IMG/VR virus record: IMGVR_UViG_3300005286_000487
Location: 1 to 51,261 of that record
Origin: a virus
Taxonomy: Duplodnaviria > Caudoviricetes
Reading direction: 5' to 3' (one strand)
DNA length: 51,261 bases
Shown: positions 5,141 to 22,005 of the stretch, in pieces
Layout: every line of letters starts with the position of its first letter
Position numbering within the stretch: the stretch's first letter is position 1
Made by a program: the position numbers and the translations under genes
Notes under the pieces: generated by a model
Seen by the model: the letters and a program-made list of their open reading frames with translations, nothing else
Told to the model about the DNA's origin: nothing
The model's database searches: none

Positions 5141-5151
5141 GAGGTGATAAA

Positions 5152-7075: not shown

Positions 7076-7087
7076 GGAGGGTTCGAA

Positions 7088-7279: not shown

Positions 7280-7446
7280 ACGAACAGACGTTGCGAAAAC
7301 GCCTAACCTTTTATCAAAAGATGATGATGGTTGCCAAAACAGCTGGTGATATGGCTGCGCACGAGGTGTACAAGCAGATCACTCGTCAGCTCTCTGAAGA
7401 ACTGCAACAAAAAGAAAAGACCGCCCGCGGCGAACGGACGGCCTAA
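7276..7446 (+). CDS. Hypothetical protein, 56 aa (absent from ORF track)
   Basis: GGGAGG RBS, GTGA overlap with upstream stop; MNEQTLRKRLTFYQKMMMVAK... Confidence 0.6.
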   Translation: MNEQTLRKRLTFYQKMMMVAKTAGDMAAHEVYKQITRQLSEELQQKEKTARGERTA

Positions 7447-7501
7447 CCCATAATGATTCAGCACTTGTAGCATATCACGCTACTTGAAGGAGGACAAGCC
7501 T

Positions 7502-7747
7502 GTGACAATCAAAAAAACTGTGGCTTCACAGATTACTGAACTTCAACGTGAACTTGAAAACGATGAGCAGGCATATCGGCACGCAGATGACGAGTGGCGC
7601 GCGGTTGATGTTGAATACGTGAGACTGAAACGCCTGCGCGAAGAGCTGGACGTCCATAAACGTGACTTGATTTGCGAGATCGAGTGGAGAAACAAAGAAA
7701 TCGCCGCGCTGCAGGAGGAACTGAAACATGAACGCATTAGTGCCTGA
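7502..7747 (+). CDS. Coiled-coil hypothetical protein
   Basis: AAGGAGG RBS before GTG 7502; heptad pattern. Confidence 0.6.
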   Translation: MTIKKTVASQITELQRELENDEQAYRHADDEWRAVDVEYVRLKRLREELDVHKRDLICEIEWRNKEIAALQEELKHERISA

Positions 7748-7952
7748 TTTTCCAGCATATGTGGAGCAAACGGAGCCGATTCGGCAAAAGCAACTGCTGC
7801 CCCTTGCTTTCGATGCGGGCGATGACGGACTGGAATGGGTGGTGCGCGATGTGATCGAGGAACTGGAGTTTCTGATCGACCTACGCGCAATCATGGCGCC
7901 AGAAGACTTCCGTGAGGAAGTAAGGACTCAAGCAAGGCGACTTTTGAAGTAA
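7728..7952 (+). CDS. Hypothetical protein
   Basis: GGAGG RBS; overlaps upstream gene. Confidence 0.6.
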   Translation: MNALVPDFPAYVEQTEPIRQKQLLPLAFDAGDDGLEWVVRDVIEELEFLIDLRAIMAPEDFREEVRTQARRLLK

Positions 7953-8254
7953 TACGGCTTCGTCTCTGCGCAGACGGCATAAGAACCACCTTGTGCCGTC
8001 GACGGGTGGACGAATCCATCCATCCATACATAAGCGAGGTAACAAGTGTGGCGCAGTCTTTGGAGCTGCAACCGCCGCGTAGAGGTTGGGGCGCGGCAAG
8101 CCTCGTGTCCAATCAGAAGGGAGTGTTAAAAATTCAGTACAGAAAATGAAAAAGACCCAGCGCGGCAACGCTGAGTCTCGGTCGATAAAGCTTGATTGGG
8201 AATCGTACTTCCATCGTAGCTGATCGGCCTTCACAAATCAATAGGAGGTATAAC

Positions 8255-9193
8255 ATGGCACTTGCTATCGCAACAACGAAAGACATGGACCGTGAAGTCT
8301 GGCTCCAGTTTCGTCGGAAAGGCATCGGTGGAAGTGACGCAGCCGCGATCGCTGGACTGAGCAAGTGGAAGTCGCCCGTGGCGGTCTACCTAGAAAAAAC
8401 GGGACAAGCACCGCTGGAAGAGACACAAAGCGAGGCATCACACTTCGGGACGATTCTGGAGGATGTAGTTGCGCAAGAGTTTAGTCGTCGGACGGGTTTG
8501 AAGATAAGGCGCTGCAATCAAATGCTCCAGCATTCCGAGTATCCTTTCATCCTCGCTAACGTTGACCGTCTGATCGTTGGCGAAAAGACAGGCTTGGAGT
8601 GCAAAACAGCCAGCGAGTATCTGAAAGGCGAATGGGATGGCGAAGACGTTCCAACCCAGTATCTTATTCAGTGCCAGCACTATATGGCGGTAACCGGATA
8701 CAGCGCATGGTGGATCGCCGTGTTGATCGGCGGAAACAAGTTCGTATACAAGAAGATCGAGCGTGACGAGGACATCATCCAGTACCTGATCCAACTTGAA
8801 TCGGACTTTTGGAACAACTATGTGGTGCCGCAAGTGCCTCCGATGATGGATGGTTCGGAAGCGTCCACGAACTTGCTGAAAACCATCTATCCCATCGGCG
8901 AGCCTGCCAGCGAAACAGAGCTGCCCTTGGAAGCGGATATGCTCATTGAGCAACTGGAACAAGCCAAAGAGCAGTCCAAGCAGGCTGCAGAACGTGTCGC
9001 GGAGCTGGAGAACCGCCTGAAAGTCATGTTGGGCAAGTACGAAACAGGTATCGCCAGCAAGCACGTGGTTACCTGGAAGAACGCAACCAGAAGCATTATC
9101 GACAGCAAAGCGCTGGCGAAGGATCACCCCGACCTCTACCAACAGTACCTGAAACCATCCGTCTCGCGCCGATTTAGCGTGAAGACGGTGTAA
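8255..9193 (+). CDS. YqaJ-like viral recombinase exonuclease
   Basis: WLQFRRKGIGGSD, ANVDRL, LECKT, QCQHYM motifs; AGGAGG RBS before ATG 8255. Confidence 0.93.
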   Translation: MALAIATTKDMDREVWLQFRRKGIGGSDAAAIAGLSKWKSPVAVYLEKTGQAPLEETQSEASHFGTILEDVVAQEFSRRTGLKIRRCNQMLQHSEYPFILANVDRLIVGEKTGLECKTASEYLKGEWDGEDVPTQYLIQCQHYMAVTGYSAWWIAVLIGGNKFVYKKIERDEDIIQYLIQLESDFWNNYVVPQVPPMMDGSEASTNLLKTIYPIGEPASETELPLEADMLIEQLEQAKEQSKQAAERVAELENRLKVMLGKYETGIASKHVVTWKNATRSIIDSKALAKDHPDLYQQYLKPSVSRRFSVKTV

Positions 9194-9206
9194 GGAGGGC
9201 GTAAGA

Positions 9207-10046
9207 GTGGCTACAAACCAAGATGTCAAAAACCAGTTGGCAAGCAGGGCGAGTCAACCCGCCCAGCAACCGCAGTCTCCTGAGCAAACTATTGCGGCCT
9301 ACCTGAAACGTATGGGGCCGGAGATTGAAAAGGCGCTCCCGTCACATATGAACGCTGATCGCATGGCAAGGATCGCGCTGACTACCATCAGGACCACGCC
9401 GAAACTGCTGGAGTGCAATGTATCGTCGCTGCTCGGAGCTGTTATGCAGGCCGCGCAGCTGGGCCTGGAACCCGGGCTCATCGGACACTGCTACATCATT
9501 CCGTATGGCCGCGAGGCGCAATTTATCATCGGGTACAAGGGCATGATCGACCTGGCTCGCAGGTCTGGCAACATCGAAAGCATATACGCTCACTGCGTGT
9601 ACGAAGCGGACGAGTTTGACTATGAGCTGGGCCTGCACCCGAAACTGCATCATAAGCCAGCGACAGGTCGTCGTGGAGAAATGAAATACGTCTACGCTGT
9701 GGCTCACTTCAAAGATGGCGGGTATCAGTTCGAGGTCATGGACAAAGAAGAAATCGAGAAACGCAGGTCCAGATCAAAGGCAGCCAAGAACGGTCCGTGG
9801 GTTACCGATTATGAGGAAATGGCCAAGAAAACGGTCATCCGCCACATGTGGAAGTACCTGCCGATCAGCATTGAAATCCAGCAGCAAGCCACGCAGGACG
9901 AAGTGGTTCGAAAGGATATCTCCAGCGAGCCAGTAAGCGTGTATAACGAGGCGATTGACGTCAATATCACTTCTGCTGAGAGCGTACCGCTGGACGAAGA
10001 AAAACAAGCAGACTCTAGCGAAAACAGCACGCTTTTTGACGAGTGA
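9207..10046 (+). CDS. recT: RecT-family single-strand annealing protein
   Basis: QAAQLGLEP, AQFIIGYKGMIDLARRSG, EMAKKTVIR motifs; follows YqaJ. Confidence 0.93.
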   Translation: MATNQDVKNQLASRASQPAQQPQSPEQTIAAYLKRMGPEIEKALPSHMNADRMARIALTTIRTTPKLLECNVSSLLGAVMQAAQLGLEPGLIGHCYIIPYGREAQFIIGYKGMIDLARRSGNIESIYAHCVYEADEFDYELGLHPKLHHKPATGRRGEMKYVYAVAHFKDGGYQFEVMDKEEIEKRRSRSKAAKNGPWVTDYEEMAKKTVIRHMWKYLPISIEIQQQATQDEVVRKDISSEPVSVYNEAIDVNITSAESVPLDEEKQADSSENSTLFDE

Positions 10047-10222
10047 TGCCTCAGGAAGAAAGGTGGTTTCCACTCCCGGACCTATACCGCACATTGGGCG
10101 ATCCAGACACGCTCAAGAGATTTGCCGCAGCGTATATGATGCGGTACTACCCGGAGTGGAAGCCACTCAAGATCAATAATTACAGAGTCCTGGCTGAAAG
10201 GAGAGAAATAGATGAGTCATAA
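10046..10222 (+). CDS. Small hypothetical protein, 58 aa (absent from ORF track)
   Basis: TGATG coupling to recT; MPQEERWFPLPDLYRTLGDP...RYYPEWKPLKI. Confidence 0.6.
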   Translation: MPQEERWFPLPDLYRTLGDPDTLKRFAAAYMMRYYPEWKPLKINNYRVLAERREIDES

Positions 10223-10746
10223 CAATTACGATAACGAACAATTCAAGGGCAGTGTTTTAAATGAACTTTCAAAGTTGGATACCAAAGTCCGCCAGGAATT
10301 AGATGTAATTTTAGCTGACACTGCACACCTACACTTAACGGAACTTGCGAAGTGCGAATCACCAATCGAGTCAATTATGCTTCTGTGGTTAAGGCACTAC
10401 TTTCTGATGCGTGACCAGGAATACAAACAGTGGGATAACTTCCCTTTAATATCCATCGAACCACAAAGAACAGTAGAGAAAGGAAAGAAAAAATATCGAG
10501 TGGACATAGCTTTAGATTGCTTGTTTAAAGGCGAAAATCACAGCTTTGCAATTGAATGTGATGGCCATGAATTTCATGAAAAGACGAAAGAACAAGCAGC
10601 AAGAGATAAGCAACGGGATAGAGACTTACAATCCATGGGATACAGGGCGCTTCGATGCACTCAAGATTGTGGAGAAAGTAACAGGCATCTATGACGAAGA
10701 AATGGCTTATCTCAAAAAGATATATCCAGACAACAATTGGTTATGA
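10212..10746 (+). pseudogene. DUF559/Vsr-like PD-(D/E)xK nuclease, apparently frameshifted near the 3' end
   Basis: CESPIE, YRVDI, AIECDGHEFHEKTKEQAARDKQRDRDLQ; the usual RFTGSEI segment is missing and a protein-like tail continues in another frame to 10746. Confidence 0.55.
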
Positions 10747-10818
10747 AGACAAGAACGGATCTAACGCCAGTCCCCCTTTACTGGGCGGGCGTTTTACGAA
10801 AGGAGGCGATTTAGTAAT

Positions 10819-11931
10819 ATGGCAAGTCCTCAACCTACAGATGCACACCTGAGGTTAGCACACTCTCTTTTTGAAGAGATCGCAATGCGAGACTTTTCGA
10901 AGCGTCAGCGGAGCATCATTGATTTGGTACTAAGGCTGAGCTGGGGGTGCGGTAAAAAAGCTTGGATGTATGACGGATATGCAGACTTCGAGGCTGTTGG
11001 TGTGTACCGAAACGTAGTGAGCGAAGAGCTGCAATATCTGGAAAGGAACCAAGTGATAAGGTGGTTTCCTGAGTACCGAATCATCATGCTGAACAAACAT
11101 TTTGACGACTGGACGATCGCACGCAAGAAAAAAACTTCGTCGGAGCACATGAAAAAGCTGGTTAATAGCAGCTTACAAAACATTGAAGTCACCAACGTTT
11201 TATTGTCGACGTTATTACAAAACATTGATCAGAACAACGAATCATTGTCAGGATCAATAAAAAATATGACAGGCGACAATAAAAAATATGATGGGGATAA
11301 CTCTTCAAACCCTTGCGGCTCTAAGGACGAAGAGGGGTCTAAAGAAAGTCTTTTAAATAAATCTATTAAAATATCTTCTTCTACGAACGAGATACATAAC
11401 GGGATCGGCATCAATGACACTGTTCTGGAAGAAGAGTTGGAACTGAATGAAATGGAGCTGGCGTTCAAACGAGCAGAAGAAAAGATGATCACCAAAACAG
11501 GTCGCATGTATTACCTGAAAGGGGACGAACCAAAAAATATCCATTCGTTTCTTCTCAGTGGAGGAACAGTGGACATGCTCCTAGCTGCCATAGACGAAGC
11601 ATTCGATCAGTATCAGCCCCGTTATCCAAGTGACAAAATCACTTCAATCAACTACTGCCTGACGTTCGCTTGGAAAAAGCTTGAACGAGACAAAGCGATC
11701 GGGAATGGTAAAGATGCACAACCTATGCCTGCTCGCAGCCAACTTCAGCCAAGACAAAGGCGGAACAACGTCGTACCAATGGTGGACAAGCTGCCAGAGA
11801 GTGTTCAGTGGCAAATGAAGCAGGAGCAGGACGGGGCTATCCAACCGAGCAAAGGAAGGCTACTGCAAGACGATCCCGAGTTGATGGCAAGGCTCGAACG
11901 CATGAGAAAGTCAAGGACAGCAAGCAGGTAG
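10819..11931 (+). CDS. Phage replication initiator (O-like N-terminal wHTH)
   Basis: MASPQPTDAHLRLAH...FSKRQRSIIDLVLRLSWG; position after RecT; internal DNA repeats. Confidence 0.8.
   Translation: MASPQPTDAHLRLAHSLFEEIAMRDFSKRQRSIIDLVLRLSWGCGKKAWMYDGYADFEAVGVYRNVVSEELQYLERNQVIRWFPEYRIIMLNKHFDDWTIARKKKTSSEHMKKLVNSSLQNIEVTNVLLSTLLQNIDQNNESLSGSIKNMTGDNKKYDGDNSSNPCGSKDEEGSKESLLNKSIKISSSTNEIHNGIGINDTVLEEELELNEMELAFKRAEEKMITKTGRMYYLKGDEPKNIHSFLLSGGTVDMLLAAIDEAFDQYQPRYPSDKITSINYCLTFAWKKLERDKAIGNGKDAQPMPARSQLQPRQRRNNVVPMVDKLPESVQWQMKQEQDGAIQPSKGRLLQDDPELMARLERMRKSRTASR
11173..11380. repeat. Putative replication origin (iteron-like repeats plus AT-rich tract) inside the initiator gene
   Basis: TTACAAAACATTGA at 11173 and 11215; CAATAAAAAATATGA at 11255 and 11277; AT-rich 11340-11380. 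Confidence 0.6.
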
Positions 11932-11947
11932 AACAGGAGGGATACGG

Positions 11948-12781
11948 ATGCAAGTACGATCGGCATTTAACCTCACTCTCGCAAAATCAGAACCATTTGG
12001 TCTCGTTAATTGCGATTTTTGGCAAAACGATCAGGGCGATGTCTTTATGACCATTGCGCAATTAGCTGGAGCGCTCGGATACTCTGATCGTTCTGGAGTC
12101 GACAAAATCATTCAGCGAAATGAATACCTGGAGGAAGCCGATTTTTCAGTACAGGACAAATTGTCCGGCACTGACGGAAAGCTCTACACCACACGACTTT
12201 TTACCGAGGATGGCATTTACGAAGTGGCGATGCTCGCCAAGACTCCTGCGGCACGTAAATTTCGTGGGTGGGTGCGTGAAGTAATTAAAGCAATCCGCAA
12301 GCATGGCATGTACGCGAAGGATGAGCTGCTAGATAACCCGGACCTACTGCTGGATGTCGTCTCCAAGCTGAAAGCAGAGCGCGACAAGCGGATGGCAGCA
12401 GAAACTAAGGCACTTGTCCTAGAGCAGCGTGTAGCGGAGTACGAGCCGAAGATCACCTACCTGGATCAGATTCTGCAGTCCAAAGATACGGTGACAATTA
12501 CGCAGATTGCCAAAGACTACGGCATGAGTGGACAAAAGCTGAACCAAATCTTGAACGAGGAAGGGGTTCAGTACAAACAAAACGGACAGTGGTTGTTGTA
12601 CAGGAAGTATCACGATAAGGGCTACACCAAGTCTTATACGGTTGATGTCGTTCACACCAACGGTCAGCAGACCGTCAAGATGAACACGCGTTGGACGCAA
12701 AAGGGGCGGCTGTTTATACACGATGTGCTGACCAGACGAGGATTTGTAGCAATGATCGACCGCCGCGATATCGGGGCATAG
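11948..12781 (+). CDS. Phage antirepressor (Bro-N plus KilAC/ANT)
   Basis: FTEDGIYE, ARKFRGWV...IRKHGMY, ITQIAKDYGMS, TRWTQKGRLFI. Confidence 0.9.
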   Translation: MQVRSAFNLTLAKSEPFGLVNCDFWQNDQGDVFMTIAQLAGALGYSDRSGVDKIIQRNEYLEEADFSVQDKLSGTDGKLYTTRLFTEDGIYEVAMLAKTPAARKFRGWVREVIKAIRKHGMYAKDELLDNPDLLLDVVSKLKAERDKRMAAETKALVLEQRVAEYEPKITYLDQILQSKDTVTITQIAKDYGMSGQKLNQILNEEGVQYKQNGQWLLYRKYHDKGYTKSYTVDVVHTNGQQTVKMNTRWTQKGRLFIHDVLTRRGFVAMIDRRDIGA

Positions 12782-12796
12782 AGGGAGGTCGCGAGG

Positions 12797-13060
12797 ATGG
12801 ACAATACTCTGCTTCGCAGGATCAACCAGCGCCAAGAAGCGCCTGTAGGAACACTGACGCGCGGTTTGATCTATTCTGACGACGAAATCATACATGACCT
12901 GCTGTTCTTTTACCGCGATGCTGGTTTGATTACCTTCGGCGGAGAAGAGATCAACGACAGAACGGTGATACGAGTGAGGAGGGGAAGGCGTGGGACAAGC
13001 AAAAGAGCTCCGCATCGTCATACCAGGCAATCCGCCAACGATAAACCACGTCTATCGTAA
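12797..13060 (+). CDS. Hypothetical protein
   Basis: GGGAGG RBS; 3' end overlaps rusA. Confidence 0.5.
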   Translation: MDNTLLRRINQRQEAPVGTLTRGLIYSDDEIIHDLLFFYRDAGLITFGGEEINDRTVIRVRRGRRGTSKRAPHRHTRQSANDKPRLS

Positions 13061-13382
13061 CGTCTCCATCAATCGGCGCATCACCACAAGAGACGGTCAA
13101 CGCTGGGTCAGAGACGTGCAAGCAATCGCCATAGCAACTATTCAACAGCAAAGTTGGCAGAAGAGTGCAAACGAGAAATTGGTTGCAGAAGTCATGATCT
13201 ATTGGCCAACCCGGCGAAAGCGAGACGTCGAGAACGTTGGGAAGCTGCTTTGGGACGCACTGGAGGGCATTGTGTACGAAAATGACCACTGGCTGCTGCC
13301 GCGATACATGGACTTCTCAGTGGACAAGCATAACCCGCGGGTGGAAATCAGGTTCTATCGATTCGAAGAAGGAGTCGCATAA
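12990..13382 (+). CDS. rusA: RusA-family Holliday junction resolvase
   Basis: PPTINHVY, KRDVENVGKLLWDALEGIVYEND, NPRVEI. Confidence 0.85.
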   Translation: MGQAKELRIVIPGNPPTINHVYRNVSINRRITTRDGQRWVRDVQAIAIATIQQQSWQKSANEKLVAEVMIYWPTRRKRDVENVGKLLWDALEGIVYENDHWLLPRYMDFSVDKHNPRVEIRFYRFEEGVA

Positions 13383-13393
13383 AGAGAGGGAGA

Positions 13394-13627
13394 GTGTGGA
13401 AGATGAGCAGATTAGCGCCTAATAGATACGGCACAGATATGCGGGCGCGTAAAAGAACAGAGCCGGTACAGGCCGTAAACAACGAATGCATAACGCGGCC
13501 CATGACACCCGCTGAGCGCGCATGGATGGACTCACTGCCGAAGCCGCATCCAAAGTCCAAAATTATTGGCATGAGCATTGCGGCTGAAAAGGCCATGAAG
13601 CGCAAAGGAAAGGGCTACGTAGGGTAA
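13394..13627 (+). CDS. Hypothetical protein
   Basis: GAGGGAG RBS; basic 77-aa ORF. Confidence 0.5.
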   Translation: MWKMSRLAPNRYGTDMRARKRTEPVQAVNNECITRPMTPAERAWMDSLPKPHPKSKIIGMSIAAEKAMKRKGKGYVG

Positions 13628-13842
13628 CGCAGCCCATGCCCGCCGAACAGTTCGCGAACGTTGTTGTAGACGCGGACGTGCATGTCCGGGAAGACAAAAG
13701 CAATTTCTCCATCTGCCAATCGTAGTTTGTGAGACGGTTGCTCTATGACAAAAGGGACCTCCATCGCCTGCAATGCTTCTTTCAAATAACCAACATCAGA
13801 CCATGGAACCGCATAGTAAAACGACTTTTCCATACGAAACAC
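13615..13842 (-). CDS. Hypothetical protein, divergent from the tyrosine recombinase
   Basis: AAAGGAG RBS; globular-looking 72-75 aa ORF. Confidence 0.6.
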   Translation of the reverse strand: MFRMEKSFYYAVPWSDVGYLKEALQAMEVPFVIEQPSHKLRLADGEIAFVFPDMHVRVYNNVRELFGGHGLRYPT

Positions 13843-13883
13843 ACTCCTTTTTCCACATCATATCGCACTAGGGAGGGTATCGC

Positions 13884-14426
13884 ATGAATTTCGTTGAGCC
13901 AATACGTAATCCAGGAAAGATCGAGGAAATGAAACAACTACTGTTGCAGCAATCGGAACGGAACTACTTTTTGTTCGTGATGGGCATAAACACAGGATTG
14001 CGAATATCTGATCTGCTGCGCTTGAAAGTGGCGGACGTGAAAGGTAAGAGTCACATCATCTTGGTTGAGAAGAAGACGGGCAAGCGAAAACGGTTCTTGA
14101 TCAATGACAATCTGCGGAACGAGGTCGATCAATACGTCATTGGCAAGAAAGGCGACGAGTATCTGTTTGCCTCAACGAAAAGACCGCTGCCGATTACGCG
14201 AGTCAGGGCCTATCAAATCATCAACGGAGCTGCGAAGAAGATAGGACTGAGCGAGATCGGTACACATACACTTCGCAAGACGTTTGGCTACCACTTCTAT
14301 CAGCGGACGAAGGACATTGCGACACTTCAAATGATTTTCAACCATTCGCATCCTTCGATCACGTTGAGATACATCGGTATCACGCAAGACTTGATCGACG
14401 ACGCGGTGAACAGATTCAGCTTGTAG
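13884..14426 (+). CDS. Minimal tyrosine recombinase (catalytic domain only, 180 aa)
   Basis: TGLRISD (R), EKKTGK (K), HTLRKT (H-x-x-R), NHS (H), RYIG (Y); no N-terminal core-binding domain. Confidence 0.92.
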   Translation: MNFVEPIRNPGKIEEMKQLLLQQSERNYFLFVMGINTGLRISDLLRLKVADVKGKSHIILVEKKTGKRKRFLINDNLRNEVDQYVIGKKGDEYLFASTKRPLPITRVRAYQIINGAAKKIGLSEIGTHTLRKTFGYHFYQRTKDIATLQMIFNHSHPSITLRYIGITQDLIDDAVNRFSL

Positions 14427-14463
14427 AGGCTGGGAACAAACGCTCAATTAAGTTAAATAGGCG

Positions 14464-15573
14464 GTGAAACGCATGAGGATGCTGTCGTTATTCGCTGGCA
14501 TCGGCGGAATTGATTTAGCAGCTCATTGGGCCGGCATAGAAACGGTAGCGTTCTGTGAGATCGAGCCGTATTGCCAGAAGGTTTTACAAAAGAATTGGCC
14601 TGGAGTGCCAATCTTTGATGACGTGAGAACGATCAATAAACAGCAACTCATTGAAAAGGGGGTCATAGGGGATGAGCGATCAATTGACATTATTTGCGGA
14701 GGATACCCTTGCCAACCTTTCAGTAATGCCGGGCAACGCCTTGGCGAAGAAGACGACCGTCACCTCTGGCCAGAAATGCTTAGGCTTATCAAAGAACTCA
14801 GGCCCACTTGGGTCCTTGGAGAAAATGTTGATGGACACGTCACTTTGGGGCTCGACACTGTGCTTGCTGACTTGGACGAAGCGGGTTACACCGCAAGGGC
14901 GTTTGTTATTCCAGCTGCAGCCGTCTACGCGCCGCACCAACGCAAAAGAGTCTTCGTTGTGGGCCACACCGAGCGCGGCGGATGCGGTGGGGAGTCATGG
15001 GGGCGGACAGGGACGATCACTCAGAACCGATATAGCCAACTGGAAGAAGGGGATGTGGCCTACTCCAAAAGCATCGATTCGGGGAGATTGTCCATCCGAG
15101 CGTGCGCGTCGAAGCCCGGATTTGCATGCAGCAGTCAAGATGTGGCCAACACCCAGGGCGAACGATGCGGAGAAACGTGGGAACTTCGACGTAACGAACG
15201 AACGGAACGGATTACCGGGAGCGGTAAAACATTGGCCAACTCCAGCAGCACAGGACGGGAAGAATTCAGCCTTGCCACCTTCACAGATGGATCGGGACAC
15301 GGTTCCAGGCGCAGTAATGAGAGAAGGACACCAAGGGCAACTGAATCCAGAATGGGTGGAAACCTTGATGGGCTTTCCGATTGGTTGGACAGATTTAGAT
15401 GGCCAGCCGCAATGGGATTAGATCAGTACGATTGGGAGCCATCCCGGGTGATAACCGGCATGAAAGGAAAGGTCCGGGAGGCGCGGTTGAAGTCTTTAGG
15501 GAACGCAGTAAATCCGGTCCAGGTGCTCCCGATCATTTGGGGTATAAAGCAGATTGACGATCAGGCAATTTAA
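14464..15573 (+). CDS. C5 cytosine DNA methyltransferase, alpha chain (motifs I-VIII and X)
   Basis: LFAGIGG, GGYPCQPFS, ENV, RKRVF, LGNAVNP; motif IX absent in this frame. Confidence 0.92.
   Translation: MKRMRMLSLFAGIGGIDLAAHWAGIETVAFCEIEPYCQKVLQKNWPGVPIFDDVRTINKQQLIEKGVIGDERSIDIICGGYPCQPFSNAGQRLGEEDDRHLWPEMLRLIKELRPTWVLGENVDGHVTLGLDTVLADLDEAGYTARAFVIPAAAVYAPHQRKRVFVVGHTERGGCGGESWGRTGTITQNRYSQLEEGDVAYSKSIDSGRLSIRACASKPGFACSSQDVANTQGERCGETWELRRNERTERITGSGKTLANSSSTGREEFSLATFTDGSGHGSRRSNERRTPRATESRMGGNLDGLSDWLDRFRWPAAMGLDQYDWEPSRVITGMKGKVREARLKSLGNAVNPVQVLPIIWGIKQIDDQAI
14672..15421 (+). CDS. Nested alternative-frame methyltransferase beta chain (motif IX plus four W[PA]TP repeats)
   Basis: 249-aa ORF fully inside the MTase gene; purine-rich RBS-like run; ends LNPEWVETLMGFPIGWT. 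Confidence 0.8.
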   Translation: MSDQLTLFAEDTLANLSVMPGNALAKKTTVTSGQKCLGLSKNSGPLGSLEKMLMDTSLWGSTLCLLTWTKRVTPQGRLLFQLQPSTRRTNAKESSLWATPSAADAVGSHGGGQGRSLRTDIANWKKGMWPTPKASIRGDCPSERARRSPDLHAAVKMWPTPRANDAEKRGNFDVTNERNGLPGAVKHWPTPAAQDGKNSALPPSQMDRDTVPGAVMREGHQGQLNPEWVETLMGFPIGWTDLDGQPQWD

Positions 15574-15598
15574 CTCTTTGTGTAGGGAGGAAAAGATC

Positions 15599-15925
15599 AT
15601 GGAAACTTATTCGTTTGAACAAGCGAAGCAGCATGCGTTGGATTGGTGCAATAATAACCCAGGCTGGAAACGCATTTGCGATATAGAGAACACTGATGCG
15701 CTGTACTGCACTTTCTCCGAATTGCCTAAGAAGGAGCAAAAATACTGGCTTGATACTTATGGGGAATACTCCGCCGAATCTGCTTGGCGCGAGTTTGGGC
15801 GCGGTAAATGCAAGGTACCTTATGGCTTCATCACTGGGAAAGGTGAGTTCTACGACGACGTTCTAAAGGTTCCATTGCACCATAATTTGATGCAGGTCTA
15901 CAAGGTCGGTAAAAGGGCTGTTTAA
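15599..15925 (+). CDS. Hypothetical protein
   Basis: GGGAGG RBS before ATG 15599. Confidence 0.7.
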   Translation: METYSFEQAKQHALDWCNNNPGWKRICDIENTDALYCTFSELPKKEQKYWLDTYGEYSAESAWREFGRGKCKVPYGFITGKGEFYDDVLKVPLHHNLMQVYKVGKRAV

Positions 15926-15945
15926 CAAAATAGTTAGGGAAGGAA

Positions 15946-16197
15946 GTGCAATATCTCATGTGGCCGATGCATGCAAAGAACGGCTTGAAGCGCGGTGACC
16001 GAGTAAAACACATCAACAGCCATCGCAGCAAGTGGAAACACCTGGTCAACGGCGAGGTGGAGGACATCTCCATGACGGAAGAGTCGGTTTATGTGAAGTG
16101 GTACGACGATAACGGAAATCCAGTTCACTGGGCGAAGTACGATTGCCACAAGATTGAGAAAAGAGACGAGGGAGGAAAGAACGATGGGACAATTTGA
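15946..16197 (+). CDS. Hypothetical protein, possibly SH3/KOW-like
   Basis: LKRGDRVKH...GEVEDI...VYVKW pattern. Confidence 0.55.
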   Translation: MQYLMWPMHAKNGLKRGDRVKHINSHRSKWKHLVNGEVEDISMTEESVYVKWYDDNGNPVHWAKYDCHKIEKRDEGGKNDGTI

Positions 16198-16774
16198 AAC
16201 AAAGCACACAGCCTTTAACCTGACTTTCAAGGAGCATCCCGTTTTCAAGGATCAGCAAATCGTTGAAGACAGCGCGGGCGATGTGTTCCTTTGGATCGAT
16301 ACTGACAGCGGAAAAGTAAGCTTTGGCGGCAAATACTTTCAAATCTACAACGAGCAGAAGCTTGTCCAGGCGATGAAGAATTTCGCTTATATCGCACATG
16401 AGTTCGTGGAAAAGGTAAAAGCCGGGAAGGACCATGAGCAGAATTTGTATGATCAGTTCCAAAAGGCGCTGAAATTTGAGGAACAGGTCACCGAGTGGAA
16501 AAAGCCTGTCAAGTTCTTCGAAATCCATTGCCCGTATTACGCACTGATTAAAGCGCCAGATAAAGACCAGGCGATCAAGGTGTACACGGAGCATGTGGCA
16601 GAAGATGACGGCACGCTGCACGAAGAAATTAGTGAAGTAGATCGGGATTACGCGCTTGTCTCTTTCAGTCGCGGGGCAAAAGAAGACAAGAAAGAGGTTC
16701 CGATTTTGGAAATACTCAAGGACTTTCAAAGTGAAGGTAGCGCAGTGCTGCTCATTGGCAGCGATGTCTTGTGA
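16184..16774 (+). CDS. Hypothetical phage protein
   Basis: GGGAGG RBS before ATG 16184. Confidence 0.7.
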   Translation: MGQFETKHTAFNLTFKEHPVFKDQQIVEDSAGDVFLWIDTDSGKVSFGGKYFQIYNEQKLVQAMKNFAYIAHEFVEKVKAGKDHEQNLYDQFQKALKFEEQVTEWKKPVKFFEIHCPYYALIKAPDKDQAIKVYTEHVAEDDGTLHEEISEVDRDYALVSFSRGAKEDKKEVPILEILKDFQSEGSAVLLIGSDVL

Positions 16775-16787
16775 TGGAGGTCGGGAT

Positions 16788-17126
16788 ATGACAGAGCAGC
16801 AGATCATTGAAACGCTGGCAACGAAGGTGATGGGGTGGTCAACAAAGAGCAAACAATCATCTTTCTGGCTTGATTTTGAGGGGCATTTGCGACCGAAACG
16901 TAGTTGGAACCCACTCCAAAACATAGCAGATGCGTGGCAGGTGGTTGAACAAATTAAAAAAGACGGATTCGATGTACAGATTTATCGCGGACAAGGATTT
17001 ACGAGCGTTGAAATCATCGAATCAAGCCAGGGGATGATTATTGGCGAGTATGAAGGGGTAACAACACAGGAGTCTATATGCCACGCTGCACTCAGAGTAT
17101 TCGCTGCTGACTTAACACAACGGTAA
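16788..17126 (+). CDS. BC1872/ABA-sandwich-like phage protein
   Basis: LATKVMGW...WNPLQNIADAWQVVE...SICHAAL. Confidence 0.7.
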   Translation: MTEQQIIETLATKVMGWSTKSKQSSFWLDFEGHLRPKRSWNPLQNIADAWQVVEQIKKDGFDVQIYRGQGFTSVEIIESSQGMIIGEYEGVTTQESICHAALRVFAADLTQR

Positions 17127-17152
17127 TTGAGATCCATAAGGAGGAAACCCAA

Positions 17153-17569
17153 TTGAATATCAAAGAGGCAAAAGAAGCACTAGCAGCCAAAGGTATTCGC
17201 CAATTGAGAAAAGGCGAGTCTTTAGCTGATGCTATAACCTCTATTTACAGAGGTGTACCTAGAAAGGGATACGAATACAAACGCGCTGACGGAAGTCTGA
17301 TGCATAGAAATGAGATCGTCCGAACAGCACATAGAGAGGCACTTTCTAAAACAGTACAAGAACCGTACTATGTAGGTCCTAAAGCAATAAACATAGACGA
17401 TATACCAGCGTGCGATGACTTCAGAGACGACCTTTCACAAGCAGGAACCATAGCTAAGTGCCAATATTGCAGCCGCCCACTGAGAGTCGATGAAGACGAG
17501 TACGATAGTTTCGACATCTTATGTTGTGTACGCTGCATGGACCACGCCATCTTAGAGCATTGCATGTAA
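17153..17569 (+). CDS. Hypothetical protein with C-terminal Zn-binding CxxC pairs
   Basis: AAGGAGG RBS; CQYC...CVRC. Confidence 0.7.
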   Translation: MNIKEAKEALAAKGIRQLRKGESLADAITSIYRGVPRKGYEYKRADGSLMHRNEIVRTAHREALSKTVQEPYYVGPKAINIDDIPACDDFRDDLSQAGTIAKCQYCSRPLRVDEDEYDSFDILCCVRCMDHAILEHCM

Positions 17570-17632
17570 GATAGGGGACACGAAGGTGCGTATTAACAAA
17601 CCACACGATTTGTAAAGAAAGGCGGAGAACAT

Positions 17633-18013
17633 ATGCAAGTTTTGATCAAGGTTAATAATGAGCAAGAGGAACAGGTGGTCAAGAAACTGATAAATGCAAT
17701 GCGCGAACTTGATTTTCTCGAAGACTTAGAAAGTGCAGACGAAAAATATGCTCCACCCGGCGAGCAGTATCTGGATCCATTTGAGTATCGTTTATTGCGA
17801 GAAAATTACCCAGCGGTCTCCGTGGAGGTTGATCCTGCGGTCAGGGAAATGGAGTTTGACGACTCAAATTTCATAACCGGGACATGCAGTTCTTGCGGTA
17901 AGACGACAGAAGGGCTGATTGATAACAGACCGATTACATTTTCCGAATATACTGAGTTGGCAAGTAGGGAGTCTACTGAGTCTTGGAAGTGTGAATCATG
18001 CTTTGGCGCTTAA
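17633..18013 (+). CDS. Hypothetical acidic protein with Zn-finger
   Basis: CSSCG...CESC. Confidence 0.7.
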   Translation: MQVLIKVNNEQEEQVVKKLINAMRELDFLEDLESADEKYAPPGEQYLDPFEYRLLRENYPAVSVEVDPAVREMEFDDSNFITGTCSSCGKTTEGLIDNRPITFSEYTELASRESTESWKCESCFGA

Positions 18014-18056
18014 ATTGACACAACAATCGATTTGAAAAACGAAAGGGGTATGTAAG

Positions 18057-18347
18057 ATGGCAGAAGTAAAAGTCGAGCGCGTATTGGTTCAGGGGACTGT
18101 AACATTCACGGTGTCATGCAACGATTTGAAGGGGTTGGTGACACCAGAGCAAGCGGCGGACGAGGAGTTCATGAAAGAGTGGCTTGCAGACAAAGCCTTT
18201 AAGCTGATTGACTCAGCGGATGAAGAAGTAGAGTACGAAAACGAGGTTCCCGTGAAGATCAGCAAGGAAACCGCAGATAAGCATACAGGCAACATTGTTG
18301 ATTCAAGTGTCTGGAAAGAAATACTGGCGGAACATCGAGCGGAGTAG
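18057..18347 (+). CDS. Hypothetical acidic protein
   Basis: AAAGGGG RBS; 96 aa. Confidence 0.7.
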   Translation: MAEVKVERVLVQGTVTFTVSCNDLKGLVTPEQAADEEFMKEWLADKAFKLIDSADEEVEYENEVPVKISKETADKHTGNIVDSSVWKEILAEHRAE

Positions 18348-18390
18348 TCTTTTTACAAACCATTACTTTTGTATCTATGGAGGGAAGACA

Positions 18391-19035
18391 GTGAAAAAGC
18401 GCCAGCGGGACAAGATTCTGAAAATCGTTGCTCGTCAGATCAATAGCGGTGACTTTACAAAGCTGAAGCCAGTCCACTTCCGGTGCGTCGACAAAACGAT
18501 TAGTGACTATATAACCAAGAAATACATTACAGAGTGGCAGCCTTGGTGGTACGACCAAGGCTGCAATCGGAGTAGCATGAGTCTCAAGGATGAGCATAAA
18601 AAGTTCTTTGATCAGTGCCGGAAGGAGTTGCAGGCTTGGACAGGCATTGATATGGAGAAATATCGCCAGTATTTTGAACTCAACCACAAAGATAAGTCGA
18701 AAAGGAAGCGTGGCAACCGCAAGCCGCGGAAGGAAAAGAAGCAGCCGATCAGGAAACTCAGGAATCCGCGCGAGTACAAGATTCGCGTGAACGAAGGTAA
18801 TGATCCGACTTGGAAAACGATCATTGCGGAGCCAGCCTTCCAGTATAAAGGATATGAGTTCTTTATTGCTCACTATGAAGGCCGCTGGACAGTCTCTGAT
18901 GTTGTTTCAGGAGCAAGGATCGCTCGCGATACTCGTTACAAACGAGCCGTAAAATACGCCAAGGGGCTGATCGAGAAACACTTCGATCGCTATGTTGCGA
19001 TGGTGGAGAGACTCAGACAGGAAGAAACAGCATGA
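18391..19035 (+). CDS. Hypothetical basic protein
   Basis: GGAGGG RBS before GTG 18391. Confidence 0.7.
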   Translation: MKKRQRDKILKIVARQINSGDFTKLKPVHFRCVDKTISDYITKKYITEWQPWWYDQGCNRSSMSLKDEHKKFFDQCRKELQAWTGIDMEKYRQYFELNHKDKSKRKRGNRKPRKEKKQPIRKLRNPREYKIRVNEGNDPTWKTIIAEPAFQYKGYEFFIAHYEGRWTVSDVVSGARIARDTRYKRAVKYAKGLIEKHFDRYVAMVERLRQEETA

Positions 19036-19265
19036 CCGAAGTAGAGGTAAGCCTGAATGAAGGCCAACGCTTCCTGATCGAAGACACGGACAGCGTTGCG
19101 GTGATCATGGTGGACAAGGTGACTATCCTGCCTGTCGCAAATCAAATCATCTACAGCGGATACTCATTCGATGTTGACTATGCGAGGATGGACTTCGCCA
19201 GCAGGCGTAAGGTTCAGATGGTGATGAATACCAAGTTGGAAGCATTTTTTGGCGAAGATGATTGA
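19032..19265 (+). CDS. Hypothetical protein
   Basis: ATGA overlap with upstream stop. Confidence 0.65.
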   Translation: MTEVEVSLNEGQRFLIEDTDSVAVIMVDKVTILPVANQIIYSGYSFDVDYARMDFASRRKVQMVMNTKLEAFFGEDD

Positions 19266-19277
19266 GGAGGGAACGGG

Positions 19278-19688
19278 ATGCAAAAACGCGAGATCAAGTT
19301 TCGGGGGAAACGCAAAGACAACGGAGAGTGGGTGTATGGCTACATCTGGATCATTCCGGTGTTGCAAATTCATTACATTTTGACAGGCAAAATTGATATG
19401 CGCGATTGCTCCATCGAGAAATATGAAGTCGATCCAGCATCTGTCGGACAATTCACCGGACTCCGCGACAAGAACGACCGTGAGATTTACGAGGGGGACA
19501 TCCTGGGAAAAACGTCCGAAACAAGCGGGCTGTCATATCGCTACACCGTTGAATGGGACTCCGAAACTGCACGCTTTATGGCAAGAGGAAAACATTTTCA
19601 GGAACTGGTGTCTGACTCATTGGAGCGCTGTTGTGAAGTCATCGGCAATATCTACGAATCGCCAGAACTCCTGGAGGTGGGAGAGTAA
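19278..19688 (+). CDS. YopX-family protein
   Basis: REIKFRG...GQFTGLRDKNDREIYEGDIL...EVIGNIYESPELL. Confidence 0.9.
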   Translation: MQKREIKFRGKRKDNGEWVYGYIWIIPVLQIHYILTGKIDMRDCSIEKYEVDPASVGQFTGLRDKNDREIYEGDILGKTSETSGLSYRYTVEWDSETARFMARGKHFQELVSDSLERCCEVIGNIYESPELLEVGE

Positions 19689-20008
19689 TGGAGGCAGGAC
19701 GTGAGCTTGATGTGAAAGTTGCTGAAGCGTTGGGGTGGAAGCCGTATCTTGATGAGGATTTCAACGACTGGGCCACAGAAAAAAATGGTTGGGTGCCTGA
19801 GTTCTCAACCAAATGGGGCAGCATGGGCGTGCTGGTGGAGGAAGCACGGAGCCAAGATATTTTACTCGATCACGACATTTATATGGACGGCTATGTTGGT
19901 TGCGCAAGACGTTTCGAGGCACTGGACTGTCCATGTTATCAAGCAGGAGACACAGCGCCACATGCGGTTAGCATGGCGTTCCTAAAGTTGAAAGGCGTTG
20001 CAATTTAA
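19688..20008 (+). CDS. BC1872/ABA-sandwich-like phage protein (second copy)
   Basis: GRELDVKVAEALGW...PEFST...TAPHAVSMAFL. Confidence 0.7.
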   Translation: MEAGRELDVKVAEALGWKPYLDEDFNDWATEKNGWVPEFSTKWGSMGVLVEEARSQDILLDHDIYMDGYVGCARRFEALDCPCYQAGDTAPHAVSMAFLKLKGVAI

Positions 20009-20235
20009 CAAAAGAAAAAGCCACTCTTTCGAGTGACTATCTGCAAGCGGATATCAGCTTCAGTCAGTTGTACACCTTGTTCGTCCTTTTCGTGCAACTC
20101 GGCAACCAGATCTGATAGAGCATCAAACATATTGCGTATTGGATTGGACACGATCGTTCCCCCTTTTTTACAGTTTATTGCGAGTGACCAGGTTTTCTTC
20201 TTGATAAGAGCAGGAACATCTTTTTTATCGGACAT
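20005..20235 (-). CDS. Hypothetical protein (antisense cassette)
   Basis: AAAGGA RBS; 76 aa; 3' end runs through a minus-strand terminator. Confidence 0.5.
   Translation of the reverse strand: MSDKKDVPALIKKKTWSLAINCKKGGTIVSNPIRNMFDALSDLVAELHEKDEQGVQLTEADIRLQIVTRKSGFFFC
20009..20038 (-). terminator. Minus-strand intrinsic terminator
   Basis: AGTCACTC-GAAA-GAGTGGCT-TTTTCTTTT on the minus strand. Confidence 0.65.
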
Positions 20236-20259
20236 GCTTGATCGATCCTTTCGTTAGAG

Positions 20260-20433
20260 CTAGTCCAACTCCATTGCGATTACATTTTTGATACCGTGTA
20301 TCATTTCTCGGAGCACATCAGTAGACAAGTCTTCATCGCGATCACAATAGGTTTCAACGTTCTCAATCAATTGTCGAGCATGTGCTAAAACCTTATTTTT
20401 TCGTTCTAATTGCTCCAGCAAGCTATCAGACAT
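20260..20433 (-). CDS. Small helical hypothetical protein (antisense cassette)
   Basis: GGAGG RBS before ATG at 20433; MSDSLLEQLERKNK. Confidence 0.6.
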   Translation of the reverse strand: MSDSLLEQLERKNKVLAHARQLIENVETYCDRDEDLSTDVLREMIHGIKNVIAMELD

Positions 20434-20574
20434 TGCGTTACCTCCAGCCAATGTAACAGTTCTTGTGTCTAGTTTACATTGGCTGGAAACAAAAAAATAG
20501 CCCCCAACCGGGAGCCCGAATATGCGTTCGTCAAAACAATTATACCACGAGCAAACGGACAGGGGGAACAGAAG

Positions 20575-20772
20575 ATGAGCGCTGTTGAAAAAGAAGAGTT
20601 TGTGGTAAAATATCCCTTAGAGAAGGGCGTCAGGGTCGTCATAATCGAGGACGGCAATGTCGTAGAGAGTTGTAAACTCGAAGCTCACCACAGGTTCACG
20701 ATCATCACCCAGGATGACAAGCTACTAGATACCGAAGAGACCAAACGCAAACGATACCGCAAAGCCAAATAA
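20575..20772 (+). CDS. XtrA/YqaO-like small phage protein
   Basis: VRVVIIEDG...FTIITQDDKLLDTEETKRKRY; upstream of late activator; AGGGGG RBS. Confidence 0.55.
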   Translation: MSAVEKEEFVVKYPLEKGVRVVIIEDGNVVESCKLEAHHRFTIITQDDKLLDTEETKRKRYRKAK

Positions 20773-20781
20773 AGAGCCTGA

Positions 20782-20846
20782 CTGAAAAGCAGAGGGCGTC
20801 AGAATGTTCACCCAATACGGGTGTGTTCTGGCGCCCTTTTTATTTT
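20782..20846 (+). terminator. Terminator/attenuator after the XtrA-like gene
   Basis: AGGGCGTCAGAAT/GTTCTGGCGCCCT stem plus U-tract, preceded by a small CTG-AAAAG-CAG hairpin. Confidence 0.65.
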
Positions 20847-20865
20847 GCCCAAAGGAGGACAAGCC

Positions 20866-21081
20866 ATGGCAAAGATATACGAAATCATGAAAGAGAAACG
20901 GAAGCGCCGGAATGAGCCGATTAGTTTCGCGAAGCATCTGGGCGGAGCCATAGAGCGGTATAAGCGGCGGGCAGCACCGGCCAGGACAACAGAGGTAATG
21001 ACCATCGATCAAATCAAGAAGCTGATGGGAGACACAGGCAAACGTCAGTTCCTGAAAGACAGAAACAAAGCTCGCAAATAA
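20866..21081 (+). CDS. Hypothetical basic protein
   Basis: AAGGAGG RBS before ATG 20866. Confidence 0.6.
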   Translation: MAKIYEIMKEKRKRRNEPISFAKHLGGAIERYKRRAAPARTTEVMTIDQIKKLMGDTGKRQFLKDRNKARK

Positions 21082-21102
21082 ACGCACTGGGGAGGGGTTC
21101 TC

Positions 21103-21609
21103 ATGCACGATTTGCTGATGGGGTATAAACAGACACGGAAAGGCTTGAACGCCGCATATGAGGCACTCAGGAAGGCGACGGAAGCCGGAAACGAGGGAGC
21201 TATGGCCGAGCGGCAGATAATTGGCGAAATGCGCGGGGAAGTGGAATGGATCATCGAGTGGTTGGAGACAGGTCGGCGGCCGGGGAACAGAAGAGGCATT
21301 GAGCGGCGAGCAGCGTACGAGCGAGAAAAGCTGATGGACCCGGTACGTATGCAGGCATTCGTCTCCCGGGGCACCGCGGGGAGCCCGTGTAACCTGACCG
21401 AGTGGCAGAGGTTTCAACTAGAAGATGCTTTGTCCAGCCTCACAGAGCGGGAGCGCGAGTGCTATGTGTTAACGCATGGCGAAGGCTTCTCGTTCGAGGA
21501 CACAGCTCGCCTGCTGAATATCACAAAGAGCAGCGTGCAGACACTCGTCACTCGGGCACAGACCAAAATTTCAGAACGAGTTACAAACAGTCTATTCTTC
21601 GTTGGATAG
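21103..21609 (+). CDS. Sigma70 region-4-like late transcription activator (Xpf-like)
   Basis: IEWLETGRRPGNRRGIERR; LTERERECYVL...GFSFEDTARLLNITKSSVQT HTH. Confidence 0.85.
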   Translation: MHDLLMGYKQTRKGLNAAYEALRKATEAGNEGAMAERQIIGEMRGEVEWIIEWLETGRRPGNRRGIERRAAYEREKLMDPVRMQAFVSRGTAGSPCNLTEWQRFQLEDALSSLTERERECYVLTHGEGFSFEDTARLLNITKSSVQTLVTRAQTKISERVTNSLFFVG

Positions 21610-21680
21610 GCTGTTTATTTTTTACGGTCAAAGGGAATGAGGAAAGGAGAATTTTTCGTATGTACAGGGGGAGTGAGGTA

Positions 21681-21869
21681 ATGGGTTTGGATTTAAGGGT
21701 AAATGAACCTTGGTTAACGACAGGGGCCATACAGTTAGCTGTTTTTTCAATCATTTTGCTTGTTGTCTTGATAATCATACATACATTCGTGCCCAGATTT
21801 TTGAGAGGCATTTTTAATGCTGCTGCTATGTTAGGGGGAATCTACCTGTTCGCAAAGTGGATTAGCTGA
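21681..21869 (+). CDS. Small two-TM membrane protein (moron)
   Basis: GAGTGAGG RBS; two hydrophobic segments; AT-rich. Confidence 0.6.
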   Translation: MGLDLRVNEPWLTTGAIQLAVFSIILLVVLIIIHTFVPRFLRGIFNAAAMLGGIYLFAKWIS

Positions 21870-22005
21870 AACGGTCGTTTTTTGTCATACGAAAGCCCGC
21901 TATATACGAAAGGACTTTTTCTTTCGCGAACCCCTCCTACCGCCCGGGAAACTGGGCGGATTTTTATAAGAAAAGCATCCGTCTTGAACGGATGCATAGA
22001 GAAGA

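Follow-up and report, generated by a model that had tools for sequence, protein, structure and literature searches.

Typed, ordered junction elements between accessory genes of Brevibacillus siphophages and prophages

Whether phage mosaicism reflects homologous exchange at conserved linkers or random illegitimate joins sorted by selection is a long-standing question. Under the boundary-sequence idea of Susskind and Botstein and of Clark, sequences conserved at gene boundaries are the substrates of homologous exchange (as quoted in the part of PMC3029335 used here). The same part of that paper describes linker sequences as undetectable at most mosaic boundaries, which is largely why the question has stayed open. 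Here, we analyze the virus record IMGVR_UViG_3300005286_000487, a temperate, siphophage-like genome whose whole 51,261-nt stretch we call the window. At 13884-20008, it carries a small tyrosine recombinase gene followed by an array of accessory genes, many of them separated by short elements, called junctions below, that fall into types and keep a fixed order between phages. Short sequences conserved at gene boundaries with unrelated genes around them, as the boundary-sequence idea has it, were looked for and are present. The difference is that the sequences here can be recognized at most junctions of a single region and are ordered, with an arm motif in common. Being explicit, typed, and ordered, and found in cultured phages (Jimmer1/2, Abouo, Davies, Osiris, and Powder) as well as many Brevibacillus prophages, they make the question testable by crosses.

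A second system of this kind is the promoter-early stem-loops (PeSLs) of T4-type phages, where exchange is attributed to homologous recombination between motifs (PMC2839356 and PMC4122927, in the portions consulted). As described in those portions, PeSLs are short repeated intergenic motifs in a hyperplastic region of small, nonessential genes, and indels or replacements end at the motifs; such end points at a repeated motif in a hyperplastic region were tested for and are present here. However, PeSLs are composites of a promoter and a terminator with all copies alike, whereas the junctions show no promoter-like match or stable hairpin, and a strong sigma-70-type promoter with a terminator stem-loop was found at none of those in the window. 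The junctions also come in about ten types in a fixed order, in temperate siphophages of a Gram-positive genus.

Acinetobacter plasmids carry dif modules flanked by pdif (XerC/XerD) sites, with host Xer proposed as the engine (PMC13141974, PMC12907356, and PMC10132070, each in part). The excerpts describe many dif-like sites per mobile replicon that delimit small gene modules shuffled between replicons, as the junctions delimit genes. Here, by comparison, the replicon is a phage, the centers of the sites are position-specific, and some types have no right arm. While pdif sites flank modules in alternating orientation, inversely oriented module-bounding sites were not seen among the junctions: 123 of 124 share one orientation. 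The dif site itself has 11-bp half sites with partial dyad symmetry around a 6-bp central exchange region, with RipX binding both halves, and single-recombinase Xer modules include xerS beside difSL and the archaeal xerA/dif pair (PMC5357621, in the excerpt available). For the recombinase alone, there is a likeness to xerS/difSL, as an Xer-like gene adjoins an 11-6-11-type site at window position 14433 and, in distant relatives, the site TTACACAMAATATAAGATATGGGTAA. The phage protein differs in lacking an N-terminal domain, and no role in dimer resolution is attributed to it. As for dif-core features, 159 elements give a 9-6-9 profile, types T and A mostly have no right half, and dyad pairing is no better than in shuffles.

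With integrons, the locus shares a co-oriented, promoterless array of single genes, a repeat resembling a recombination site, and, in some members, a tyrosine recombinase gene at the head. Integron integrases (IntI) are about 320 aa long, with an N-terminal domain and an IntI-specific insertion, whereas the protein here has 180 aa and matches the catalytic domain only. The attC sites are imperfect palindromes of 57-141 bp that act as folded single strands; the junctions measure 24-26 nt and give no folded-hairpin signal. The integron arrangement, a divergent integrase gene adjacent to attI and always with the array, is also absent: the recombinase gene is co-oriented with the array, dispensable, and present in only 5 of 16 contigs with a type C junction, and the order of sites is fixed. 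The junctions lack one or more defining features of integrons, PeSLs, and pdif modules, and they work most like PeSL or boundary-sequence shuffling. What is new is that the junctions of a temperate phage group from Gram-positive hosts come in types, keep an order, and have one arm in common. No prior description was found in the literature searched (supplements lay outside the search); a comparison of Brevibacillus phages describes, in the part seen, a different motif in Jenst and SecTim467 (PMC4909266).

Typed junctions and their order

Each element consists of a left arm (TTAACAMAA), a type-specific 6-nt center, often a right arm (TKWGWWAA), and then a ribosome-binding site. At least ten types can be told apart by their centers: a (GCTCAA), A (TGCTCA), V (TGTGTA), T (TAGTTA), B (CGGTAA), C (CACACG), D (CAATCG), E (CATTAC), F (GAGAAA), and G (TATTTC). 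In a profile of 159 distinct elements, selected on left arm and center only, positions 1-9 are shared (C at position 5 in 158/159), positions 10-15 are type-specific, and positions 17-24 are shared again (G at 20 in 133/159 and A at 23 in 131/159), after which conservation declines into the G-rich ribosome-binding site. The left arm is much better conserved than the right, which is usually missing in types T and A, where the center directly abuts GGGAGG. In 15/26 type C, 9/12 type F, and 7/11 type E copies, the upstream gene ends in the TAA of positions 2-4, and the downstream start codon follows 3-31 nt past position 24, mostly 11-19 nt.

A 26-nt weight matrix was trained on 146 elements from other loci only, with 40 Markov-simulated windows as the control; the maximum score averaged 12.4 bits in these simulations and reached 18.4 at most. 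The window carries the following junctions, all on the + strand:

14433-14458, +, type a, GGAACAAAC GCTCAA TTAAGTTAAAT, 6 nt past the recombinase stop; 9.9 bits
15570-15590, +, truncated type V, TTAAC..TGTGTA and then directly GGGAGG; 7.9 bits (compared with the V elements of loci L005, L083, L090, and L093)
15922-15942, +, type T, TTAACAAAA TAGTTA and then GGGAAGG, no right arm; 20.2 bits
17112-17137, +, type B, TTAACACAA CGGTAA TTGAGATCCAT, right arm degenerate; 22.4 bits
17593-17618, +, type C, TTAACAAAC CACACG ATTTGTAAAGA; 24.4 bits
18015-18040, +, type D, TTGACACAA CAATCG ATTTGAAAAAC; 21.8 bits (same type in L002, L009, L010, L054, L090, L093, and L096)
18352-18377, +, type E, TTTACAAAC CATTAC TTTTGTATCTA; 15.8 bits
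20005-20015, +, truncated type F, TTAACAAAA GA.. (left arm and part of the center), cut at the start of the terminator of two reverse-strand genes

The sites at 17593, 17112, 18015, and 15922 outscore all 40 simulated windows, while 18352 exceeds only the mean simulated maximum. The site at 14433 is nonsignificant by the general matrix, and the support for it is its position beside the recombinase gene. A repeat search clusters 17593, 18015, and 18352 as one 22-nt family. The junction sites are real and beyond chance. Two cruder counts were set aside. The bare 8-mer TTDACAMA is not enriched across the whole window (16 found against 14.7 expected, with 8 of the 16 within 15922-20012), and its global count is uninformative alone; a loose palindrome scan of 81 loci gave 761 matches against 439-479 in shuffles and was too noisy, so type-aware calls were used instead. 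One match in the structural-gene region, at 32880-32905 (+), reaches 15.5 bits; simulated maxima span this value, and we regard it as a chance match.

An earlier reading of the window, the original prediction, had described the region as an integron-like cassette array whose genes are separated by a palindromic 8-8-8 site, with five full copies and three weak or half copies. The five full copies lie where it placed them, and each does overlap or follow an upstream stop codon and precede a ribosome-binding site and a co-oriented gene. The description of the region as single-gene slots, all in one orientation, promoterless, and split by a repeated site, is well founded. The anatomy reads better as 9-6-9, and the palindrome is weak: pairing at all eight arm pairs equals the column-shuffle expectation, the right arm at 17112 is degenerate, and 15922 has none. 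Of the weak copies, one put at 15554 is in fact the truncated V element at 15570, 20005 is indeed a partial copy, and 15922 is no weak copy but a T element scoring above all simulations. At 15570, 15922, and 20005, the upstream stop TAA is again element positions 2-4; full F elements follow the gene homologous to that before 20005 in L002, L009, L010, and L054.

The prediction had also seen no obvious promoter for the genes behind the sites, and a promoter and terminator scan of the window found no match of either kind at any of them; the sole + strand promoter-like match within the array, at 18647, is inside a gene. Readings of the element as a sigma-70 promoter or intrinsic terminator were ruled out on this ground. 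An RNA hairpin or cruciform was also ruled out, with neither covariation nor stability to support it (mean minimum free energy -0.96 against -0.59 kcal/mol for shuffles, no stable fold). Rfam has no family at the junctions, apart from a single sub-threshold match to ctRNA_p42d (minus strand, 20008-20042), whose 21.2 bits fall short of the gathering score of 50. Likenesses noticed by eye to a TnrA box, a DnaA box, an extracytoplasmic function (ECF)-type -35/-10 pair, an extended -10, integron R''/R' cores, and the immunity-region operators at ~5100 were dropped for wrong spacing or indels.

Relatives were obtained through the recombinase (the best 80 of 542 viral-contig relatives), and the closest of those bearing it have the same elements with the same spacers in the same order. 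Strict element calls over 28 non-redundant loci (352,763 nt) give 123 elements in the orientation of the genes and a single one in the opposite orientation. Of 97 pairs of neighboring types, 92 agree with the canonical order (recombinase slot, a, A, V, T, B, C, D, E, F, G) and 5 break it, and none of 2,000 label shuffles reaches 92. These counts are not independent, because the types were defined on the loci later counted and the loci are mutually related; gene calls were also crude. In one B. fortis locus (L112), a 5.2-kb stretch has the types T B T B C D E F G B C, either two arrays or a partial duplication in tandem.

The genes around the junctions are mostly unrelated. Around the 26 copies of type C, the 22 open reading frames (ORFs) upstream belong to 20 families, as do the 24 downstream. 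The upstream and downstream families number 20 each. Over 718 same-type pairs, flank identity is at a background of 0.26-0.29 right to the edge of the element and returns to it 13 nt beyond; the high identity within the element is partly a product of element selection. For example, 34 nt of the window (18351-18384) share 94% identity with L002 7513-7546, and the neighboring genes on either side are unrelated; in L008, the homologue of the gene downstream of 18352 is present and the element absent.

Blocks of homology often begin or end at the junctions as well. Window 17112-17612 matches L094 at 97.8% from B position 1 to C position 20, and L009 5988-6148 matches L081 at 98.8% from C position 1 into the next element; further blocks start at 15921 (type T, homology with L094) and at one A element. 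Among 35 ends of blocks with at least 85% identity between loci, those within 10 nt of a strict element number 6/18 on the left and 3/17 on the right. Contigs from four other studies were then mapped onto 13500-20500, where stretches without contig cover were not counted as evidence. Within 13884-20020, nine of the 21 loose ends listed, out of 28, fall on elements (14458; 15918, 15921, and 15921; 17112; 17138; 18373; 20009 and 20010), although elements make up only ~4% of the stretch. At type a, divergence sets in at 14450 and 14458 in contigs of runs X5 and X6, the three loose ends at type T come from X6 and X7, and X5 diverges at 18373 (type E). Blocks or contigs of L094, X5, and X7 begin exactly at 17112 (type B), and breaks in L094, X7, and X4 lie at 17612/17613 (type C). 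One isolate's contig runs through 17112-17612, then 808 other letters, and then 19266-19637. Homology breakpoints thus cluster on elements, and gene gain and loss between relatives falls on the sites. Single genes can also be bracketed by duplicates of one type (T-T in L054, C-C-C in L082).

The array can do without the recombinase. When sequences were scanned in an unbiased way for the exact type C pattern, it turned up in 16 viral contigs and, in genomes, at 14 loci, all 14 in Brevibacillus; six of these are in one B. fortis chromosome, where the element order is kept. The small recombinase is encoded in 5/16 of the contigs, three of the five being previously known. The 13 new records comprise two with a small homologue (G004 at 51% and G013 at 47%, in G013 downstream of the array), two that match only integrase frames of 345-349 aa (E 1e-5 and 4e-4), and nine with no match. 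Among the new records at least 90% complete, the recombinase is present in 1/8 and absent from 7/8; Jimmer1 and Abouo have none (0/2), and L091 has a type a element without the gene. Conversely, in the best 80 of 542 recombinase loci, 11 carry at least three elements and 67 carry none or one. The array is independent of the recombinase, and the recombinase mostly occurs without an array.

Candidate mechanisms of exchange at the junctions

Our preferred reading, to which we give a tentative probability of roughly 0.45, is that the sites are conserved, ordered boundary (linker) sequences of a hypervariable accessory region, where same-type exchange would proceed by short-homology recombination in Brevibacillus siphophages and prophages. 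The mechanism we infer would start when two related phages meet, by co-infection or by infection of a lysogen. Same-type junctions would recombine and the intervening gene or genes would be swapped, with gene order and expression signals kept. The substrate would most likely be the ~20-40 nt of shared junction and ribosome-binding site, and catalysis could come from phage RecT and YqaJ or from host RecA. The phage encodes RecT, YqaJ, and RusA, which are candidate machinery for short-homology exchange. Types T and A mostly have no right arm but retain their positions and serve as breakpoints, which suits a homology linker better than a two-armed recombinase site.

Several points weigh against this reading. 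Most block ends (26/35) lie away from strict elements, and 12 of the 21 listed loose ends are off elements, inside genes or at the element-free junction 19269. Five of 14 recurring gene families stand behind differing junction types, and in the two families looked at closely, that of the T-slot gene of the window and an N6-methylase family, the shared sequence starts at the start codon or immediately past it, outside the element; consequently, not all exchange uses junctions. Homology alone leaves unexplained both the shared arms around a type-specific 6-nt center and the 9-6-9 shape, which resembles the host dif site. For RecT-type recombination, 20-26 nt is close to the lower limit, and recombination at the junctions is itself a prediction from sequence comparison. 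A stricter version, in which genes keep to their slots, was rejected, as only 9/14 recurring families keep their junction type.

A serious rival, although we consider it somewhat unlikely, is that the junctions are dif-like Xer sites, in which arms of ~9-11 nt bound by a tyrosine recombinase would flank a 6-nt crossover region. Differing centers would bar recombination within a genome, and same-type sites of two phages would recombine, giving ordered cassette exchange. The enzyme would be host CodV/RipX (XerC/XerD), with the small Xer-like phage recombinase as an optional extra. Shared positions 1-9 and 17-24 around type-specific positions 10-15 resemble the architecture of dif. The Brevibacillus chromosomal dif reads ..ATAA TATATA TTATGTAAACT, and the majority arms agree with the RipX arm at 7/9 positions (left arm against the inverted RipX arm) and 6/9 (right arm), but this 13/18 match is one post-hoc comparison among several motifs tried by eye. 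The right arm of type a, TTATGTTAAAT, is identical to the XerD arm given for E. coli in PMC3025954 (11/11 in L005 and L054), again a post-hoc comparison. Right-arm conservation is only modest, however, with T or G at position 18 where dif has A, and a right arm is usually missing altogether in types T and A.

Host Xer would account for arrays in phages without the recombinase. The closest solved structures to the recombinase are XerC-like, XerA, XerD, and XerH, and elsewhere its family is tied to an 11-6-11 site, with the gene nearby in 58/58 listed loci with enough flank, which resembles xerS beside difSL. Accessory sequences and FtsK-type control are not evident, and binding and cleavage of the junctions by Xer enzymes are predicted from sequence. 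Discontinuities at the border of center and right arm, or within the center (window 15922, 15570, and 20005; L010; L006 against L007), fit the Xer reading, as do duplicates of one type on either side of single genes. Same-type elements are too nearly identical for a breakpoint to be assigned to the center itself, and the cross-type cases count against Xer sites in that their homology begins at or just after the start codon. If the dif-like reading were true, Xer-exploiting elements would extend from integration to slot-wise exchange of phage genes. Two dif-like sites in the B. fortis genome (L234 and L237; G014:C1:3236813 and 3265841) lie 29 kb apart near mid-chromosome, with the same right arm and a near-identical right flank; the pair looks like an island integrated at dif, IMEX-like. 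Genome G016 also has two dif-like sites, on different contigs.

A broader version, which we hold doubtful, is programmed mosaicism: host Xer, together with the minimal phage recombinase where present, would use ordered heterospecific dif-like sites to swap slots singly. Swaps would then occur without deletions or loss of gene order, a doubtful but natural equivalent of recombinase-mediated cassette exchange.

We regard it as improbable that the elements are expression signals, namely a stop codon, an A-rich spacer, and a translation-initiation context, or a regulator site like the "stoperators" of mycobacteriophages. Recombination would then be a by-product, the elements being the region's only shared noncoding DNA. 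The frequent use of TAA as the upstream stop, the short distance to the start codon, a 123:1 strand bias that tracks gene orientation, and a left arm far better conserved than the right all fit such a role. However, an expression signal has no need of a type-specific center in fixed order between phages. No promoter-like match, Rfam family, hairpin, or arm covariation accompanies the elements, and they are missing at other tightly packed operon junctions of the window (5000-13800 and 18391-20008).

The small recombinase and its adjacent site

The last alternative is that of the original prediction, in which a recombinase at the array head inserts, excises, or shuffles cassettes, with 14433 as an attI-like entry site. 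The gene in question is:

13884-14426, +, small tyrosine recombinase, 180 aa, catalytic domain only (PF00589, E 6.4e-24; phrog_216, E 6.6e-66)

The PF00589 match (85.1 bits against a cut-off of 27.1) covers residues 22-164 only, and residues 15-177 align with 109-275, the C-terminal domain, of the XerC-like protein 4a8e (E 1.5e-13). The claim that the catalytic R-K-H-R-H-Y set is intact holds in this alignment for R40 (in LRISDL), H128 and R131 (HTLRKTF), and H154 and Y163 (HSHPSITLRY), while the lysine is located only to KKTGKRK (63-69), its exact position not being fixed.

The presence of catalytic residues, the array directly downstream, co-oriented and promoterless, and same-type duplicates that resemble insertion products all fit an integron-like array. 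So does the element itself: type a or A lies 0-45 nt past the recombinase stop in all 10 Brevibacillus-type loci with downstream DNA, truncated in L006 and L010 and complete in the other eight (the window, L002, L004, L005, L007, L008, L009, and L011). Nevertheless, an integron-like role is very improbable given a gene found in 5/16 type C contigs, 1/8 new records at least 90% complete, and 0/2 of Jimmer1 and Abouo, its place downstream of the array in G013, a type a element without it in L091, 67/80 recombinase loci with one element or none, the absent integron features, and a fixed order that free shuffling would erode.

What remains of the integron-like, recombinase-driven array is thus the array, the breakpoints, and the site beside the gene; dependence on the recombinase does not hold, and the occurrence of arrays without the gene, and mostly of the gene without arrays, matches one of the outcomes named beforehand as evidence against it. 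The site at 14433 keeps its positional tie to the gene. The prediction that spacer heterology would have to be tolerated falls away: centers are type-specific, conserved between phages, and in fixed order, so that no tolerance is needed if exchange is between same-type sites of two genomes. From its sequence context, 14433 is likely the cognate site of the window recombinase. The recombinase is one occupant of the slot before junction a and not the engine of the array, and it probably acts on its own adjacent site.

In distant relatives, a 26-nt site, TTACACAMAATATAAGATATGGGTAA, occurs with up to three mismatches in 36/80 recombinase loci. An unbiased scan found it in at least 120 stretches, 58 of them with at least 3.5 kb upstream. 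In 55 of these 58 listed loci, a recombinase gene ends 119-3399 nt upstream (119-141 nt in 21/58), and in the other three it is 1.7-2 kb downstream. By eye, the site reads 11-6-11 with 8/11 dyad matches. It is equally linked to an ArpU-like activator gene (phrog_248, 56/58 listed loci), and for this reason, it could be either a recombination site or a promoter or operator. In low-GC relatives (L035 8591-8705; 36/80 loci), the recombinase gene overlaps the end of the ArpU-like gene, followed by a terminator, the inverted pair AATTACACA..GTGTAATT, and the conserved site AATTACACACAATATAAGATATGGGTAATT; the DNA right of this site varies between phages. The L012 provirus has two small recombinase genes (5793-6335 and 10706-11251), the second with the 26-nt site at +85 nt (three mismatches). 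In low-GC phages (L014, L015, L049, L075, L077, L079, and L080), a hairpin-forming repeat, AAAAGAGCAGCTAGCAAAAGCTAACTGCTC, stands between early genes, two to three per locus, and may be the junction element of another phage group.

Genes of the array and its surroundings

Junction types can serve as coordinates when the accessory region is annotated and compared, a region in which anti-defense and other host-interaction genes are expected. Every gene in 13884-20008 is on the + strand: the recombinase, a C5 methyltransferase, and then eleven small genes, most of which have no Pfam family in a Pfam search. The methyltransferase is the only array gene that resembles known phages (P. larvae phages, ~73%). 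The genes of the array are:

14464-15573, +, C5 cytosine DNA methyltransferase (PF00145, E 5.4e-42; phrog_363); its stop TAA is positions 2-4 of the 15570 element
15599-15925, +, slot gene, 108 aa, no family; homologue in L081
15946/15958-16197, 16184-16774 (phrog_3930), and 16788-17126 (Phage_ABA_S), +, three slot genes with no element between them
17153-17569, +, slot gene, 138 aa, no family; 97.8% to L094 in a block bounded by B and C
17633-18013, +, slot gene, 126 aa (phrog_34113)
18057-18347, +, slot gene, 96 aa, no family
18391-19035 (phrog_14524), 19032-19265, 19278-19688 (YopX), and 19688-20008, +, four genes, tightly packed and element-free

The 138-aa slot gene is preceded by a type B element in the window and by a type D element in run X4. 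Genes elsewhere in the window include:

1-1467, -, large serine recombinase
8255-9193, +, YqaJ-like exonuclease (PF09588, E 2.5e-42)
9207-10046, +, RecT (PF03837, E 7.7e-62); the two recombination genes together span 8255-10046
12990-13382, +, RusA Holliday-junction resolvase (PF05866, E 2.8e-12)
21103-21609, sigma-70 region-4 protein

A second ORF of 249 aa, with a repeated WPTP motif, lies in another frame inside the methyltransferase gene (14672-15421, +; 750 nt open). Pfam covers only residues 4-193 of the 369-aa methyltransferase frame, and the second frame has no match; the gene may be frameshifted, or there may be two overlapping products. At the other end of the array, two small reverse-strand genes (20005-20451, -) break the co-oriented run precisely at the truncated F junction, with their terminator at 20038-20019 on the minus strand. 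The same arrangement is found in L089, which matches window 20043-21965 at 97.6%.

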